Below, piece by piece: positions 30,553 through 42,581 of a stretch of 64,000 nt of DNA (position 1 is its first letter; each line of letters opens with the position of its first letter). Where the stretch lies: positions 90,050 through 154,049 of the forward strand of contig CACECP010000001.1 of assembly GCA_902558095.1 (NCBI GenBank), given 5' to 3'. Position numbers and translations under genes: made by a program. The DNA comes from an uncultured SAR86 cluster bacterium. Its GTDB lineage: Bacteria > Pseudomonadota > Gammaproteobacteria > Magnimaribacterales > D2472. The notes beneath the pieces were generated by a model. That model worked only from the letters and a program-made list of their open reading frames with translations. It did not search any database and was not told the DNA's origin.

Positions 30553-32508
30553 TTAATATTTTAAATTATTTTTTAAATCATCTAAATATGGTTCATAGTT
30601 TTTCCAGTAATCCATTCCACTTGTATATATAGGTTGACGAACTTGCTCAGCACTTGGTGTTTTTACAGATCTTTTAGATTTATAGAATTCAAGACATTCT
30701 TTTTCAAAAGGAATTTCACAATATTCTAAGATATCTCTAACCGAATCCTCAAAGTTATTTACAACATCTTCGTAGTTAATTGAGAGTATTTGATTTGGTA
30801 AAACTTTATTCCAGTGATTCATTAACTCTACATAATTATTATAGTATCCAGCTAAATCTTTTAAGTCGTATGTAAATTCTTGTCCCTCAGCAAAAAGCTG
30901 TTTGAAACATGAAAAACAAGCAGACATTGATGATCTTCTAATATCAATTATTTTTGCATTAGGTAGAATAAGTTTTATTAAACCGATGTGTCTGAAGTTA
31001 TTCGGCATTTTGTCTATAAAATAAGGTTTATCTGATCTAAAGACCTCACTATCCTTTATATATTTATCTCCTATTAATTTTAATTGAGGCGAAGATAAGC
31101 TTAATAATATATCTGGGTATCTTGATTTTTTATCTTGTGACTTTCTTTCGTTTAATCTTAATGCAGTCGAAATAATGTTTGGTAGTTCATGGGTAGGTTC
31201 AACTAGTGAATGAGAAGATAGAATTTGTTCAATGAGGGTTGATCCAACACGAGGCAAGCCTAAAATAAATATAGGAGCCTTTGATTCACTACCCCATTTA
31301 GACTTCATTTCAAATAAATCGTCAGTACATACATCTATCTGGTTTGTACATTCTTTTTCAAAATCATTGACGTTAAATAAAGCTTTGCTTTTTTTAATTA
31401 AATTTCCTTCCTTGTAATGATTAAATGATTTTTCATACTCATTAAGGTCTTCATATGCTTTTCCTAGAGCAAAGTGCATGAAAGTTTTTTCATCTACTGA
31501 AACATATGGATCATTAACCATTTTGTCTATAGAGATCACCTCAGATTCAGAAAAAGTGTATGTTTTAAGATTGGCCAAACTCCAATATGAATCGCCAAAG
31601 TATTTATCAGTTTTATAAGCCGTTTGATAACAGTTAATTGATTTATCTATTTCACCTGAAGTTTTATAAAGGTGTCCCATAGATAACATCACATCCGTAT
31701 TTTTGGGTTCTAGTTTTAAAATATCATTGTAAATATCTATTGCTTCTTGGTATCTATCTGTTCTAAATAAGGCTGTTGATAATAGCTTCATTGCATTTAT
31801 ATTTTTTTTATCTTCATTATAAAAATCTTGAGCATGTTTTAATGCTTCGCCATACTTTTGTCTTTTAGTAAGTATGTTTATATAGTCATATTTAATTTTT
31901 GCATTTTCTGGATCAAATAAAAGCGCGCTTTCCAAAAGAAACTCTGCATCTTCATATATATTCAAATCTCTTCCGATATTAGCAAGCAATCTCATTGCTT
32001 CAATGTCATGAGGGTGATCTCTTAAATATTCTCTACAAATCCTATCTGCTCTTGATAGTTTTCCTTCATGTGTAAAACTAATTACTGTTTTTAATTCAGG
32101 TGGCAAGTCTTTTAGATATATTACATTTTGTTCTACAAATTTTATTAATTCTTCATTTTTGGTTTCTAATGCAAGTATGCCCAACCATGATGATTGAAGT
32201 GATGGATTATGTCTAACAGCTCTCAAGTATGCTTTAAGAGCTTTATTTTTGTTTTTAAGTAAAATATTTGTGTGTCCTATTTCTTGATAGGCTCTTCCAT
32301 AATTTGGATCAACTTGAATCAATTTATCTAAATTAATTAAAGCCTTTTTAGGTTCATTAAGGTATCTATAGCATACTGATGTTAAATAATAAAAATCTTT
32401 TTCTATTAATTGTTTAGAATTTTTTTTACATAAAGATAGCGCGTTTTTAAAATCTTTATTCTTAATAGAATTTTCAATAACTTTTTTAATTTCAGTTCTT
32501 TCGTTCAT
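30553..32508 (-). CDS. TPR-repeat sulfotransferase (copy 1)
   Basis: 651 aa with no signal peptide. The N-terminal half is TPR units. The C-terminal half has PAPS-binding-like motifs [20 protein letters not shown] (5'-PSB) and [18 protein letters not shown] (3'-PB). Paralog of 38662..40254. Confidence 0.8.
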   Translation of the reverse strand: [651 protein letters not shown]

Positions 32509-32531
32509 AGAGTAATTTTAATACAGTTATA

Positions 32532-32563
32532 TAAAAAAAAGGCCAGTAAAAAACTGGCCTTTT
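32532..32563 (-). terminator. Rho-independent terminator after TBDR-1
   Basis: Palindrome ggccagt-aaaaa-actggcc extended by A/T pairs. On the minus strand it is followed by a run of about 9 U. It lies about 23 nt upstream of the sulfotransferase start. Confidence 0.8.
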
Positions 32564-32579
32564 AAAATACTATATCAGA

Positions 32580-40254: not shown

Positions 40255-40263
40255 TTATTTAAA

Positions 40264-40294
40264 TAAAAAAGGCTGTATTTGAATACAGCCTTTT
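40264..40294 (-). terminator. Rho-independent terminator after TBDR-2
   Basis: An 8-bp stem ggctgtat/atacagcc with a 4-nt loop. On the minus strand it is followed by UUUUUUAUUU. It ends about 9 nt upstream of the sulfotransferase-2 start codon. Confidence 0.8.
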
Positions 40295-40313
40295 CATTAA
40301 TTTATAAAAACTA

Positions 40314-42581
40314 TTATTTATATTTCCAACTGAATTTAACACCAACAGTAGTTGGTCTATTTACAGTTGTTAATTTTTGAATATCTTCACTATTTATATA
40401 TAGTTGAGCAACTTCATCAAATATATTATCCATATATATCTGCATTGTAGAGTTGTCTCCAACTTGAGTAGTGAATGATAGATTAGCAATACCATATGAG
40501 TCTTGCATCTCTCTATCACTGTAGAATAGATCATTCCACATTTCATCTACAAATACATAGTTGAACTGAAGGCTTGAACTTTCACCAGTATCTACATTGA
40601 TAGTGACGTTATATTTAGTATCAGGGGTAAATGGCAGATCTTGGCCATCTTTAGCTTCTACCACTCCTCTTAATACATAATCCTCTTTGAGAACAGCTTC
40701 GTTACTAGCATAACCAAGTGCCACACTAACTGTATCACTTAGAATATACTTAGCATCGATCTCATAACCGTTACTGTTAGCCTTGCCTATATTATCAACA
40801 AGTCCAAGCAATGATATAGATGAATCAAACCATCCAAGCTGGATATCATCCCAGTCCATCTGATACATAGCAGCATTTAATCTCAATCTTCCATCCATAG
40901 ATATAGATTTAAATCCAAACTCTGTGCTGGTTAAGAAGTCAGCATCATAAGTAGCTCCTAGTTGGGTTGTTCTATTTGCACCACCAGGCCTGTAACCTTC
41001 AGATCTAGTGATATAAATCATGGAATTATTGTCAACCTGATAGGATAAATTAATTTTTGAAATGCTATCACTACCATCATATAAAGAATTAACATTATCA
41101 GGTCGTGTTGTGCTTCCTAAGATGTAATTAGGCCACCAAACAGTTCCAACAAAGCCTTTTAGGGTAGTTTCATTATCAAATTTTCTATGACCTAATGTAA
41201 GTTCGATTTTGTCATTAATTTGATAGTAAATTTCACCAAAAACAGCTGACTCATCTTCAGCTCTTACTTGATCTGTTTGATAATAAAGATCTTTAGAGCC
41301 TGGAACCGCCGCAGCAGGATTAATAGCTGGAACATGCCATTGGGAGTCATAATCCGTAACATTTTCAGTTTGGAAAGCACCAATGATCCAGTTTAGCTTT
41401 TCACCCTCTTTGGAAGATAATCTAATTTCAGTTGTGTCATATTCTTGATGAGTATCATTTTCAAATTGAATACTTGGATCAACACATGGTCCAAAATAAT
41501 ATGTATAACAAGTGTAGTAACCCTCAACGTATCCATCAATTGCATAATGAGAATAATCACTCAAAACTTCAAAGTCTCTTTCAAGACTTGATGTAGTGAA
41601 AGTTAAATCAGCAAATCCAAGATCGCCAGTTACTGTTGCTGAAAATCTGGTCCACTCGTCGTGAGTTTTATCATCATAGAATCTGCTCACATTATATTCT
41701 CCAAGCTCATCTGGATTATGATCCCAGACACCGTTTGTTGAAGTTTCCTGACCCATGTAATTGACATCAATTTGCCAATTTTCATTAAGATCTACTCTTA
41801 AAGCAGCTCTGTAGCCTTCTTTTACAGCATCATTGAAGTTATCTTCTACAAAAACTTCATTTGATCTTGTTATACCACTTACTGGATAGGTAATTGAATC
41901 ATTTACTGAATCAATAAAACCACCGTCTCTATCATTAAAACCTACAAATCTTAATGCAGCATTTTGTGAAAGAGGAATGTTTACAAAACCTTCTACCATC
42001 GTACTTCCATCGCCACCTCTTGTAGATTCAGCACTTAAGTTAAAACCAGAATCAAATTCTGAAGATGGTTTTTTTGTAATTATTTTTAAATTACCAGCTT
42101 GTGACGCTGCACCATAAAGCGTTCCTTGAGGTCCAGTTAATGACTCAACTCTCTCTATATCATAAACATGCACATCTAGGTTATCGCCAATCATTGTGAC
42201 TGGTGATTCATCAAGATAAATTGCTACTGCTGGTCCTTGAAGTGATTGGTTGTTATTACCACCATCAGATATACCTCTCATGAAAATTTGTCCTTGGCCA
42301 GGTCTTCTTTGAACAGCAGAAGCCGCAGGTAGTTGAAGAACGTAATCAGCAAAATCTTTTATATTTAATGAGTCCAACTCATCCGAAGATAATGTTGTAA
42401 CACTGATTGGTACATTTTGAAGGTTTTCAGTTTTCTTTTGCGCGCTAACGATAACTTCCTCAATCATCATGTCATCTTGTGCAATTGTGTTTGCACTTAC
42501 AAGCACAGCAGAAGCTATTGCGGTAGCTTTAGTAGTCTTAACCACAGCATCGTGAACCTTCTCTGCGTGAAATATATTCAT
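40314..42581 (-). CDS. TonB-dependent receptor (TBDR-2, paralog of TBDR-1)
   Basis: 755 aa with plug motifs EEVIVSAQKK and LTGPQGTLYGAASQAGNLKII. The barrel ends in TVGVKFSWKYK. Confidence 0.9.
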   Translation of the reverse strand: MNIFHAEKVHDAVVKTTKATAIASAVLVSANTIAQDDMMIEEVIVSAQKKTENLQNVPISVTTLSSDELDSLNIKDFADYVLQLPAASAVQRRPGQGQIFMRGISDGGNNNQSLQGPAVAIYLDESPVTMIGDNLDVHVYDIERVESLTGPQGTLYGAASQAGNLKIITKKPSSEFDSGFNLSAESTRGGDGSTMVEGFVNIPLSQNAALRFVGFNDRDGGFIDSVNDSITYPVSGITRSNEVFVEDNFNDAVKEGYRAALRVDLNENWQIDVNYMGQETSTNGVWDHNPDELGEYNVSRFYDDKTHDEWTRFSATVTGDLGFADLTFTTSSLERDFEVLSDYSHYAIDGYVEGYYTCYTYYFGPCVDPSIQFENDTHQEYDTTEIRLSSKEGEKLNWIIGAFQTENVTDYDSQWHVPAINPAAAVPGSKDLYYQTDQVRAEDESAVFGEIYYQINDKIELTLGHRKFDNETTLKGFVGTVWWPNYILGSTTRPDNVNSLYDGSDSISKINLSYQVDNNSMIYITRSEGYRPGGANRTTQLGATYDADFLTSTEFGFKSISMDGRLRLNAAMYQMDWDDIQLGWFDSSISLLGLVDNIGKANSNGYEIDAKYILSDTVSVALGYASNEAVLKEDYVLRGVVEAKDGQDLPFTPDTKYNVTINVDTGESSSLQFNYVFVDEMWNDLFYSDREMQDSYGIANLSFTTQVGDNSTMQIYMDNIFDEVAQLYINSEDIQKLTTVNRPTTVGVKFSWKYK

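Follow-up and report, generated by a model that had tools for sequence, protein, structure and literature searches.

The closest described relatives of the enzyme considered here are the animal sulfotransferases TPST1 and TPST2, which belong to Sulfotransfer_3; the catalytic residues of TPST are R78, E99, K158 and S285 (PMC5562738). They gave the best profile and fold matches to the sulfotransferase (ST) of the two-gene module described below, with which they share the 5'-PSB and 3'-PB elements and the catalytic Arg, Glu, Lys and Ser. TPST is, however, a Golgi type II membrane protein, whereas the module ST is predicted to be soluble and cytoplasmic, is bacterial and linked to a TonB-dependent receptor (TBDR), and carries a long N-terminal TPR array. 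In Xanthomonas oryzae, the RaxST-RaxX system comprises a bacterial tyrosine sulfotransferase and its peptide substrate (PMC3071791; in part general knowledge). RaxST is likewise a cytoplasmic, TPST-type enzyme that depends on PAPS, and its action before export, on a tyrosine that follows an aspartate, can be likened to that proposed here for the module ST. It differs in having no TPR domain, and in that its substrate is an adjacently encoded small secreted peptide with the type I exporter RaxA/RaxB; our small-ORF and flanking surveys found no RaxX/RaxA/RaxB-type partners beside the modules. O-GlcNAc transferase (OGT), SPINDLY and AspH also join a TPR superhelix at the N-terminus to a catalytic domain, but theirs is a GT41 glycosyltransferase or a 2OG oxygenase instead of a sulfotransferase, and the analogy is one of architecture only.

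On the receptor side, the siderophore receptors FyuA, Fiu, FhuE and FhuA share with the module receptor a Plug and a 22-strand barrel, a TonB-box-like segment and a signal peptide. Identity is nevertheless only about 15%, the NCBIfam siderophore-receptor models all fell under their cut-offs for the module receptor, and the module subfamily is set apart by a D-Y-x-x-Y motif with its loop L4 and by the adjacent ST. A TBDR (MbnT) and a sulfotransferase (MbnS) also occur in one locus in methanobactin operons (PMC3621798). Such operons additionally require MbnA, the precursor, and the enzymes MbnB and MbnC, all absent here, and MbnS is without a TPR array. Our literature search found no description of the TBDR/ST pairing reported here or of its function.

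The window, meaning the whole 64-kb stretch of DNA that was analysed, comes from the chromosomal core of a SAR86-like gammaproteobacterium and contains two pairs in which a TBDR gene precedes a TPR-sulfotransferase gene (Table 1). All four ORFs were verified, and tblastn over the whole window revealed no further ST or TBDR copies. The coordinates in an earlier note on this DNA held for ST-1, ST-2 and TBDR-2, but the TBDR-1 start that it gave, 35009, lies four codons inside 35021, at the second ATG in frame. Every peptide string that it had quoted as shared between the copies was found in the translations, and the five unrelated genes that it had placed between the pairs were identified as a BCCT transporter, a 66-aa single-TM ORF, a nitroreductase, a 4-TM protein and an S51 peptidase. 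The neighbours that it had named were confirmed as well: the last two beside ST-2, and a MAPEG protein beside ST-1. The intergenic spaces of both pairs are too short to hold a precursor-peptide gene, and cysDN and cysC, which would bear on PAPS supply, are absent from the 64-kb window.

Table 1. Positions in the window of the two receptor-sulfotransferase pairs, their sequence features and neighbouring genes.
Feature	Position	Strand	Description and basis
ST-1	30553..32508	-	cytoplasmic TPR + TPST-like sulfotransferase (predicted), 651 aa; ORF, Pfam
TBDR-1	32580..35021	-	TonB-dependent receptor, ST-linked subfamily, 813 aa; ORF, Pfam Plug
ST-2	38662..40254	-	cytoplasmic TPR + TPST-like sulfotransferase (predicted), 530 aa, TTG start; ORF, Pfam, AF2
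TBDR-2	40314..42581	-	TonB-dependent receptor, ST-linked subfamily, 755 aa; ORF, Pfam Plug, AF2
TBDR-2 D342-Y343-S-H-Y346 + loop L4	41469..41558	-	DYSHYAIDGYVEGYYTCYTYYFGPCVDPSI; candidate sulfation site; translation
TBDR-1 D362-Y363-S-G-Y366 + loop L4	33849..33938	-	DYSGYANVGAWLPYYVCNYTAYNLCGPATV; translation, alignment
Terminator-like hairpin, TBDR-2 stop to ST-2 start	40267..40294	-	AAAAGGCTGTAT-tcaa-ATACAGCCTTTT, then T-run
Terminator-like hairpin, TBDR-1 stop to ST-1 start	32537..32563	-	AAAAGGCCAGT-ttttt-ACTGGCCTTTT, then T-run
S51 peptidase	37961..38707		46-nt overlap with ST-2; Pfam E = 7e-48
4-TM ORF	37587..37964		between the two pairs
MAPEG protein	30135..30524		downstream of ST-1
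Single-TM ORF, 66 aa	36792..36992		between the two pairs

The paralogy previously claimed for both partners is far above chance: identity between ST-1 and ST-2 is 43% over 519 aa (E = 3e-151), and that between TBDR-1 and TBDR-2 is 33% over 796 aa (E = 8e-132). However, ST-2 shares 54-57% identity with Halieaceae and Emcibacter proteins, above its 43% to ST-1, and Halieaceae receptors are nearer to TBDR-2 than TBDR-1 is. TBDR-1 groups with receptors from Sphingomonadales, Glaciecola, Hellea and Emcibacter, which likewise lie upstream of an ST, and the two window pairs fall in different old clades. Since ST-2 and TBDR-2 are closer to Halieaceae proteins than to their paralogues in the window, the genome holds two old, anciently diverged lineages of one two-gene module. 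The same proximity to proteins of other taxa rules out a recent or local duplication within this genome. The suggestion that the pair was duplicated as a unit thus stands as far as it concerns a functional unit, which the pairing and the congruent trees support, but not as a recent intragenome event.

A neighbourhood survey of the TPR-sulfotransferase family and a comparison of the partner phylogenies had been proposed as checks, and both bore out the pairing. The sample comprised 80 genomic loci from Alpha- and Gammaproteobacteria plus the window, with 92 STs, and a TBDR was considered adjacent if it lay within 1.5 kb. This was the case for 81 STs, in three gene orders: 42 ST>TBDR, 29 TBDR>ST and 10 divergent. 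Among the 11 orphan STs, 10 were accounted for by a contig end, another ST in tandem or a single gene in between, leaving a single unexplained orphan. Conversely, receptor-first look-ups found a TPR-Sulfotransfer_3 gene adjoining 6/6 receptor homologues, and four non-adjacent TBDRs from the same loci clustered far outside the ST-linked receptor subfamily. The trees of the two partners were congruent (Spearman 0.82 for pairwise distances; adjusted Rand index 0.92 at four clusters), and the clades track gene order, not taxonomy. No third conserved gene family accompanies the pair, the best being found in 14/81 loci within 10 kb; the 123 immediate flanking ORFs represent 105 Pfam families, of which the most frequent, MFS_1, occurs 8 times. 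The module is an old and self-contained one, consisting of one TBDR subfamily and a cytoplasmic TPST-like enzyme, adjacent in nearly every relative, and the comparison of sequences supports the pair as a functional unit.

Both STs contain Pfam Sulfotransfer_3 (E = 6e-42 and 3e-48) together with TPR repeats. As noted previously, neither has a signal peptide; no TM segment was predicted either, and from residue 11 onward the ST-2 model consists of TPR helices. In this model (AF2, pLDDT 90.7) a TPR superhelix spans residues ~11-276 and the catalytic domain residues 287-530. ST-1 has about 125 additional N-terminal TPR residues, and this long form (~670 aa) is the commonest across Proteobacteria. 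A profile search against the PDB returned TPST1 and TPST2 as best matches over the whole domain (E = 6e-19 to 2e-15), followed by the CurM and OLS sulfotransferases, while the best Foldseek matches of ST-2 were TPST1, tick TPST and TPST2 (target-normalised TM-score 0.60-0.69, at ~18% sequence identity in the structural alignment with TPST). The four TPST catalytic residues align, in the order given above, with ST-2 R295, E316, K376 and S495, which are invariant in the ST family. The PRxGST and RR...S motifs, previously assigned to the PAPS-binding 5'-PSB and 3'-PB, both align with the corresponding TPST elements. The TPR part is nearest to the TPR domains of OGT and SPINDLY, that of OGT being the best PDB match (E = 1e-10); in these enzymes polypeptide substrates are held by the TPRs. 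From its profile matches and model, the ST resembles a protein-tyrosine sulfotransferase whose TPR array would bind peptides.

Pfam Plug was detected in both receptors. TBDR-2 has a signal peptide of ~37 residues and a TonB-box-like segment, 'IEEVIVSA'; its plug extends to about residue 169, and its barrel has 22 strands. Its AF2 model (pLDDT 87.7, pTM 0.87) matched FyuA, Fiu, FhuE and FhuA best in Foldseek, with E down to 6e-48. According to the secondary structure of this model, the D-Y-x-x-Y motif sits where strand beta7 ends on the outer side of the membrane and the extracellular loop L4 starts. D342, Y343 and Y346 (TBDR-2 numbering) are invariant in alignments of 36 locus-derived and 88 database relatives, and the motif occurs in 75/77 ST-adjacent receptors and in 0/4 unlinked TBDRs. 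One receptor without it, from locus L040, has a strongly diverged partner ST. The residue preceding the first motif Tyr is acidic in 100% of cases, Lys/Arg are nearly missing from -2 to +9, and Tyr makes up 20% of L4 versus 4.9% of the whole receptor. In TBDR-2, L4 has 8 Tyr in 29 residues, no Lys/Arg, and two cysteines, Cys358 and Cys366. These features make the motif and L4 a candidate sulfation site, though an invariant, acidic, Tyr-rich loop could also be a ligand-binding feature only.

The combination of a TPST-like enzyme, a TPR array and a receptor motif resembling a sulfation site favours a protein as the predicted substrate, possibly the partner receptor itself. Our tentative proposal, plausible but well short of probable, is that the receptor enters export with tyrosines already sulfated by its partner ST. 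The TPR array would capture the unfolded receptor precursor in the cytoplasm, to our knowledge the sole compartment containing PAPS, and the catalytic domain would O-sulfate at least one tyrosine of the D-Y-x-x-Y/L4 segment. The sulfated precursor would then be exported via Sec and assembled in the outer membrane, where sulfotyrosines at the barrel mouth may aid ligand binding. Since the window holds two anciently diverged lineages of the module, the cell would make two receptors of this kind, and each would have a modifying enzyme of its own. Our literature search found no outer-membrane protein recorded as sulfated, either by experiment or by proteomics, and we know of no precedent for a Sec substrate sulfated before export. 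Moreover, likeness to TPST does not prove a tyrosine acceptor and is compatible with another one: the related CurM and OLS sulfotransferases use hydroxyacyl thioesters.

The earlier note had suggested instead a link between an import step at the outer membrane and sulfation in the cytoplasm; the receptor would import a small molecule, for example a phenolic or hydroxylated one, which would reach the cytoplasm and be sulfated there by the ST. This reading was drawn from adjacency alone, and is possible, if unlikely, and less supported than sulfation of the receptor. The tight linkage and co-divergence of the two genes would suit it, as would the non-protein hydroxyls used by CurM and OLS ST, and inner-membrane transporters (MFS, amino-acid permease, BCCT, DcuC) do flank some modules, about one in eight, which fits ordinary nutrient import. 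Against it, neither an inner-membrane transporter nor any other gene is conserved beside the pair, and flanking metabolism varies between genomes. PAPS would be spent on an imported nutrient to no evident advantage, a small-molecule acceptor would not be expected to call for a TPR array of 250-400 residues, and the nearest ST relatives are protein-tyrosine sulfotransferases.

The TPST-like domain and OGT-like TPR array would equally suit another polypeptide, either a peptide imported by the receptor or an unlinked, secreted RaxX-like peptide that the receptor recognises in its sulfated form. We consider this improbable too. Peptidases do occur nearby: the S51 peptidase overlapping ST-2 in SAR86, M20 and S9 peptidases near the Emcibacter module, C69 in one other locus (L084), and M20 or M28 in 4/123 flanking ORFs. 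Such neighbours are, however, infrequent and from unrelated families; in the flanking survey neither a small ORF nor a peptide exporter, nor a peptide transporter of the inner membrane, proved to be conserved beside the pair, and the window pairs leave no space for a precursor gene.

More doubtful still is that the ST turns a common precursor into a sulfated metabolite or chelator for secretion and that the receptor retrieves the loaded form. The nearest solved folds of the receptor, FyuA, Fiu and FhuE, are siderophore receptors, and the MbnS/MbnT linkage (PMC3621798) is a precedent; against this, the flanking survey found no conserved biosynthetic, exporter or periplasmic-binding genes beside the pair, and neither a Fur-type element nor a riboswitch was seen (Rfam negative). 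That the adjacency reflects mere co-regulation or chance hitch-hiking of two proteins with no direct biochemical link is very improbable, for although TBDRs are highly abundant in these taxa and most TBDR>ST pairs have a terminator-like hairpin between their genes, the adjacency is near-universal in both directions, is maintained in three gene orders and involves a single TBDR subfamily, with congruent trees over two proteobacterial classes.

The hairpins themselves depend on gene order: across taxa, a hairpin resembling an intrinsic terminator lies between the genes in 21/29 TBDR>ST pairs versus 3/42 ST>TBDR pairs. In the TBDR>ST order, the hairpin after the receptor gene probably holds the enzyme at a lower, catalytic level compared with the abundant receptor.

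The four open reading frames (ORFs) described in the earlier note were found on the minus strand, where they make up two pairs of a TonB-dependent receptor (TBDR) and a cytoplasmic TPR-sulfotransferase (ST): TBDR-1 with ST-1 (pair 1) and TBDR-2 with ST-2 (pair 2). The paralogy claimed for both partners was confirmed, with 43% identity between ST-1 and ST-2 over 519 residues (E = 3e-151) and 33% between TBDR-1 and TBDR-2 over 796 residues (E = 8e-132). Pfam assigned Sulfotransfer_3 and TPR repeats to the enzymes and an N-terminal Plug domain to the receptors (E = 2e-16 for TBDR-1 and 7e-14 for TBDR-2), and it also bore out the neighbouring S51 peptidase, MAPEG, BCCT and nitroreductase genes. 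The fifth gene separating the two pairs is a small ORF with a single transmembrane (TM) segment. No further copy of the module was found in the window. The G+C content of the window is about 30%, and the nearest relatives of its proteins come from SAR86-cluster gammaproteobacteria. Since genes for tRNA synthetases, FtsK and ferrochelatase lie nearby, the region belongs to the core chromosome and is not an island.

Features of the two receptor-sulfotransferase pairs and their surroundings (window positions)
Feature	Position	Strand	Remarks
Run of co-oriented, overlapping genes	20553..29688	-	just downstream of pair 1
VWA protein	21494..22573	-	member of the run
ExbB/MotA-like protein	22578..23234	-	member of the run
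PEGA + FGE-sulfatase-domain protein	23365..25257	-	member of the run
TPR protein	25254..27116	-	620 aa; member of the run
ST-1	30553..32508	-	651 aa
Terminator-like hairpin + T-run	32563..32537	-	between TBDR-1 stop and ST-1 start
TBDR-1	32580..35021	-	813 aa
BCCT-family transporter	35262..36791	+	
Small ORF	36792..36992	-	66 aa; one predicted TM helix, acidic C-terminal tail; between BCCT and nitroreductase genes
S51 peptidase (PepE/cyanophycinase-like)	37961..38707	-	46-nt overlap with ST-2 end
ST-2	38662..40254	-	530 aa; short enzyme form
Terminator-like hairpin + T-run	40294..40267	-	between TBDR-2 stop and ST-2 start
TBDR-2	40314..42581	-	755 aa
Lipoprotein-like ORF	42680..44377	+	565 aa; divergent from TBDR-2
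BCCT-family transporter	45083..46558	+	
Na+/nucleoside transporter	51115..52365	-	
2OG-Fe(II) oxygenase	52367..53269	-	cytoplasmic
Third TonB-dependent receptor	53318..56524	-	1068 aa

The pairing was then followed across genomes. One genome per species was scanned with an alignment of the enzyme family, which yielded 80 loci; 590 of 600 pattern matches in the scan were confirmed, and the true number is larger (at least 590). The loci came from SAR86, Halieaceae, Woeseiaceae, Steroidobacteraceae, Xanthomonadales/Lysobacterales, Alteromonadales, Cellvibrionales, Caulobacterales, Sphingomonadales, Emcibacter, Kordiimonas and others. With ORFs called in six frames and receptors detected by iterative HMM search, these loci and the window contained 92 STs and 89 TBDRs. 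A TBDR was found within 1.5 kb of 81 of the 92 STs, so the absence of the pairing elsewhere, which the earlier note had named as counting against a functional link, was not observed. The enzyme gene precedes the receptor gene (ST>TBDR) in 42 cases, with a median gap of 40 nt, and follows it (TBDR>ST) in 29, with a median gap of 85 nt; the remaining 10 pairs are divergent, about 210 nt apart. Among the 11 orphan STs, five are located at the end of a contig, four lie next to a pair as its second ST and one is separated by a single intervening gene, which leaves that of locus L076 as the sole orphan without an explanation. Seen from the receptor side, all six database receptor homologues checked directly adjoin a TPR-Sulfotransfer_3 gene on their contigs, and their remaining neighbours all differ. 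Clustering of all ORFs within ±10 kb revealed no third conserved gene, be it an inner-membrane transporter, an exporter, a precursor peptide or a regulator; the next commonest family, aldehyde dehydrogenase, occurs in 14 of 81 loci. Similarly, a Pfam census of the 123 immediate flanking ORFs gave 105 families and no constant partner, the most frequent being MFS_1 with eight occurrences.

The two partners have diverged together. Pairwise distances among STs and among their partner TBDRs were correlated (Spearman 0.82, 78 pairs), and average-linkage clusters of the two families agreed at k = 4 (adjusted Rand index 0.92), so the trees of the partners are not incongruent, as they would have to be, by the earlier note, for its reading to be refuted. 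The clades track gene order rather than taxonomy: Alpha- and Gammaproteobacteria are mixed in the ST>TBDR clade, in the divergent clade and in the TBDR>ST clades, and Woeseiaceae, Emcibacter, Sphingomonadaceae and Xanthomonadales are each represented in several clades. The species tree is thereby largely eliminated as an explanation of the signal. Four other TBDRs present in the loci fall far outside the linked subfamily. Pair 2 clusters with SAR86 and Halieaceae pairs, and pair 1 with TBDR>ST pairs of Sphingomonadales, Glaciecola, Hellea and Emcibacter. Each pair thus has nearer relatives among pairs of other orders than in its companion within the window. A local tandem duplication is therefore rejected, and the two pairs represent two old paralogous lineages of one module, which are found together, in synteny, in several SAR86 genomes (L001, L002, L004).

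What kind of acceptor does the enzyme serve? Among solved structures, a profile of 35 catalytic domains matched TPST1 and TPST2, which are tyrosylprotein sulfotransferases, best (E = 6e-19 to 2e-15, about 225 residues), followed by the polyketide sulfotransferases OLS and CurM (1e-14 to 1e-12). The AF2 model of ST-2 (pLDDT 90.7, pTM 0.86) combines an all-helical TPR superhelix (residues 11-276) with a C-terminal alpha/beta domain. The top Foldseek matches of the latter, 5wrj, 8w5z and 3ap1-3 (target-normalised TM-score 0.60-0.69), make TPST1, tick TPST and TPST2 its closest folds; those of the TPR part are OGT, SPINDLY and designed TPRs. The 5'-phosphosulfate-binding loop (PxRSGTT-like) is present as 'GLPRSGSTL' in ST-2 and 'GLPRVGSTL' in ST-1, with P294, R295, G297, S298 and T299 invariant (ST-2 numbering). 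The 3'-phosphate-binding motif 'TRRNPMDCCFS', in which R400, R401 and S409 are invariant, aligns with 'VRDGRASVHS' of TPST. The catalytic residues of TPST, in TPST2 numbering, are R78, E99, K158 and S285 (PMC5562738), and this tetrad aligns with R295, E316, K376 and S495 of ST-2, all invariant in the family. No TM segment or signal peptide was found in the ST, whose N-terminus consists of TPR helices. PAPS is made in the cytoplasm, where the enzyme, having no signal peptide or membrane segment, must act. A canonical TPST is a type II membrane protein with its catalytic domain in the Golgi lumen, and the ST has neither feature; we therefore describe it as TPST-like. The combination of TPRs and a catalytic domain resembles that of OGT, SPY and AspH, which use their TPRs to hold polypeptide substrates. 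Judged from sequence and model, the TPST type and the TPR array together point to a polypeptide acceptor.

A peptide or protein other than the receptor would be one such acceptor, and we consider it an unlikely one. Bacterial tyrosine sulfation is, to our knowledge, known essentially from one plant-pathogen peptide. In that RaxST/RaxX system a precursor peptide gene is adjacent and a type I or peptidase-ABC exporter is involved, but neither is conserved with the module. Near the two pairs of the window there is no precursor-peptide gene, the small ORFs being only the 66-aa TM protein and a low-complexity, implausible ORF of 37 aa.

The receptor itself carries a conserved candidate site. The AF2 model of TBDR-2 (pLDDT 87.7) shows the plug followed by a barrel of 22 long strands, with FyuA, Fiu and FhuA among its Foldseek matches (E down to 6e-48), and TonB-box-like segments were recognised by eye after the predicted signal peptides ('IEEVVVSA' in TBDR-1, 'IEEVIVSA' in TBDR-2). 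The invariant residues of the subfamily include D342-Y343-x-x-Y346 of TBDR-2, equivalent to D362-Y363-x-x-Y366 of TBDR-1, an invariance seen over 36 locus-derived and 88 database sequences. This D-Y-x-x-Y motif occurs in 75 of 77 ST-adjacent receptors and in none of the four unlinked TBDRs. Of the two adjacent receptors that lack it, that of L008 lies 1.35 kb from the ST and belongs to another subfamily, and that of L040 has a strongly diverged partner ST. According to the strand list of the AF2 model, the motif lies where strand beta7 reaches its extracellular end and the extracellular barrel loop L4 (residues 343-371) starts. Family-wide, tyrosine makes up 20% of L4 compared to 4.9% of the whole protein, and the median loop contains four acidic residues and no basic ones. 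An acidic residue always precedes the first tyrosine (Asp in 99%), and one precedes the second in 63%. Asp-Tyr is the core of the RaxX and plant sulfopeptide sites. By sequence, the properties of L4 are those of tyrosine-sulfation sites, making it a candidate site, although the loop may simply bind ligand.

We thus have an obligate, co-diverging two-gene module in which a TPST-like enzyme is fused to a TPR array and whose genomic surroundings vary. Tentatively, we suggest that the ST sulfates the L4 tyrosines of its partner receptor. The enzyme would bind the receptor precursor while it is unfolded and place sulfate on these tyrosines before Sec export of the receptor, and the resulting sulfotyrosines on the extracellular loop would make it a sulfated ligand-capture loop. 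We favour this reading because the receptor alone accompanies the enzyme constantly and carries a conserved matching site, because the enzyme type and the TPR array suit a polypeptide acceptor, and because the metabolic genes and inner-membrane transporters at the flanks differ between loci. We know of no precedent for sulfation of a receptor before export. The earlier note had proposed a link between an outer-membrane import step and a cytoplasmic sulfation step; that imported small-molecule cargo is the substrate we regard as improbable, to about the same degree as another peptide or protein substrate. Still less probable is a sulfated chelator that is made, secreted and then re-imported. 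The solved structures nearest to TBDR-2 are siderophore receptors, at about 15% identity. No conserved exporter was found across the loci, and the methanobactin-type locus, in which the MbnA precursor with MbnB and MbnC stands beside a TBDR and a sulfotransferase, has no counterpart in the window or the 80 loci. Assignment to the siderophore receptors was rejected: all NCBIfam models scored below their cut-offs, the best being TIGR01783 with 117.8 and 90.9 bits against 223.5.

The arrangement of the genes bears on expression. In the window pairs the intergenic spaces of 59-71 nt consist mostly of the terminator-like hairpins. Equivalent hairpins, unrelated in sequence, occur in 21 of 29 TBDR>ST pairs across taxa, and in only three of 42 ST>TBDR pairs. 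The receptor transcript would mostly end at the hairpin, and read-through would then give a lower level of enzyme. That the adjacency of the two genes serves co-regulation only is, beside their co-divergence, very improbable. Rfam gave only two sub-threshold chance matches for riboswitches or cis-regulatory RNAs, and a sigma-70 promoter scan was uninformative, since it returned fewer sites (54) than shuffled sequence (mean 73.1).

Both component families were already known, the NCBI name of the enzyme being generic, and full-text searches of the literature yielded no description of the pairing, of the receptor motif or of a function. The pairing is a new combination of known families; receptor sulfation, if confirmed, would be categorically new. 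With 12,116 ST sequence clusters (50% identity) at E <= 1e-30, tyrosine sulfation would then be a widespread, hard-wired modification of the bacterial surface, and the module would stand for a new class, that of "modifier plus transporter" modules. A receptor modified by the enzyme would be the first bacterial outer-membrane protein known to be sulfated, and its sulfation a new way to tune ligand capture, perhaps also phage or bacteriocin recognition; if the enzyme acts instead on cargo or a peptide, the module would still represent an unrecognised uptake pathway. In abundant heterotrophs of sea and soil, scarce nutrients enter mainly through TonB-dependent receptors, and the core chromosome of SAR86, whose genome is streamlined, retains the module twice. 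Cultured hosts, among them Caulobacter, Lysobacter, Steroidobacter and Glaciecola, make the hypothesis open to direct test.

Several variants of the module were observed. Two ST genes stand beside one receptor in L019, L040, L061, L078 and L079, the extra ST being often shorter and strongly diverged (catalytic domain down to 26-37% identity) with the catalytic residues kept, and in L069 two tandem receptors adjoin one ST. Nine proteins of 1,100-2,800 aa (P0361, P0363-P0366, P0373, P0376, P0378 and P0436) contain three to seven separate TPR-sulfotransferase matches each; possible explanations are a tandemly repeated unit and the fusion of gene calls in other organisms. In a metagenome-assembled genome labelled Klebsiella pneumoniae (L053, CAMAQZ010000006.1), the module clusters in both trees beside that of an uncultured proteobacterium (L075), surrounded by Cellvibrionales-like sequences, and the genome is probably mislabelled or its bin contaminated.

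Other genes of the window also deserve mention. The overlap of the S51 peptidase gene with ST-2 suggests translational coupling, and this neighbour is conserved in SAR86 loci only. The divergent ORF beyond TBDR-2, with its lipoprotein-like N-terminus, had no match in Pfam, NCBIfam or PDB. The two BCCT-family (betaine/carnitine/choline) transporter genes flank pair 2 less than 10 kb apart. The gene run downstream of pair 1, which includes several ORFs without a Pfam match, looks like a putative envelope complex. No PAPS-synthesis genes were found within the 64-kb window. Finally, the third receptor, unrelated to the other two and composed of CarboxypepD_reg, Plug and barrel domains, has the oxygenase gene directly downstream, followed by the Na+/nucleoside transporter gene, and is thus another receptor followed by a cytoplasmic enzyme.
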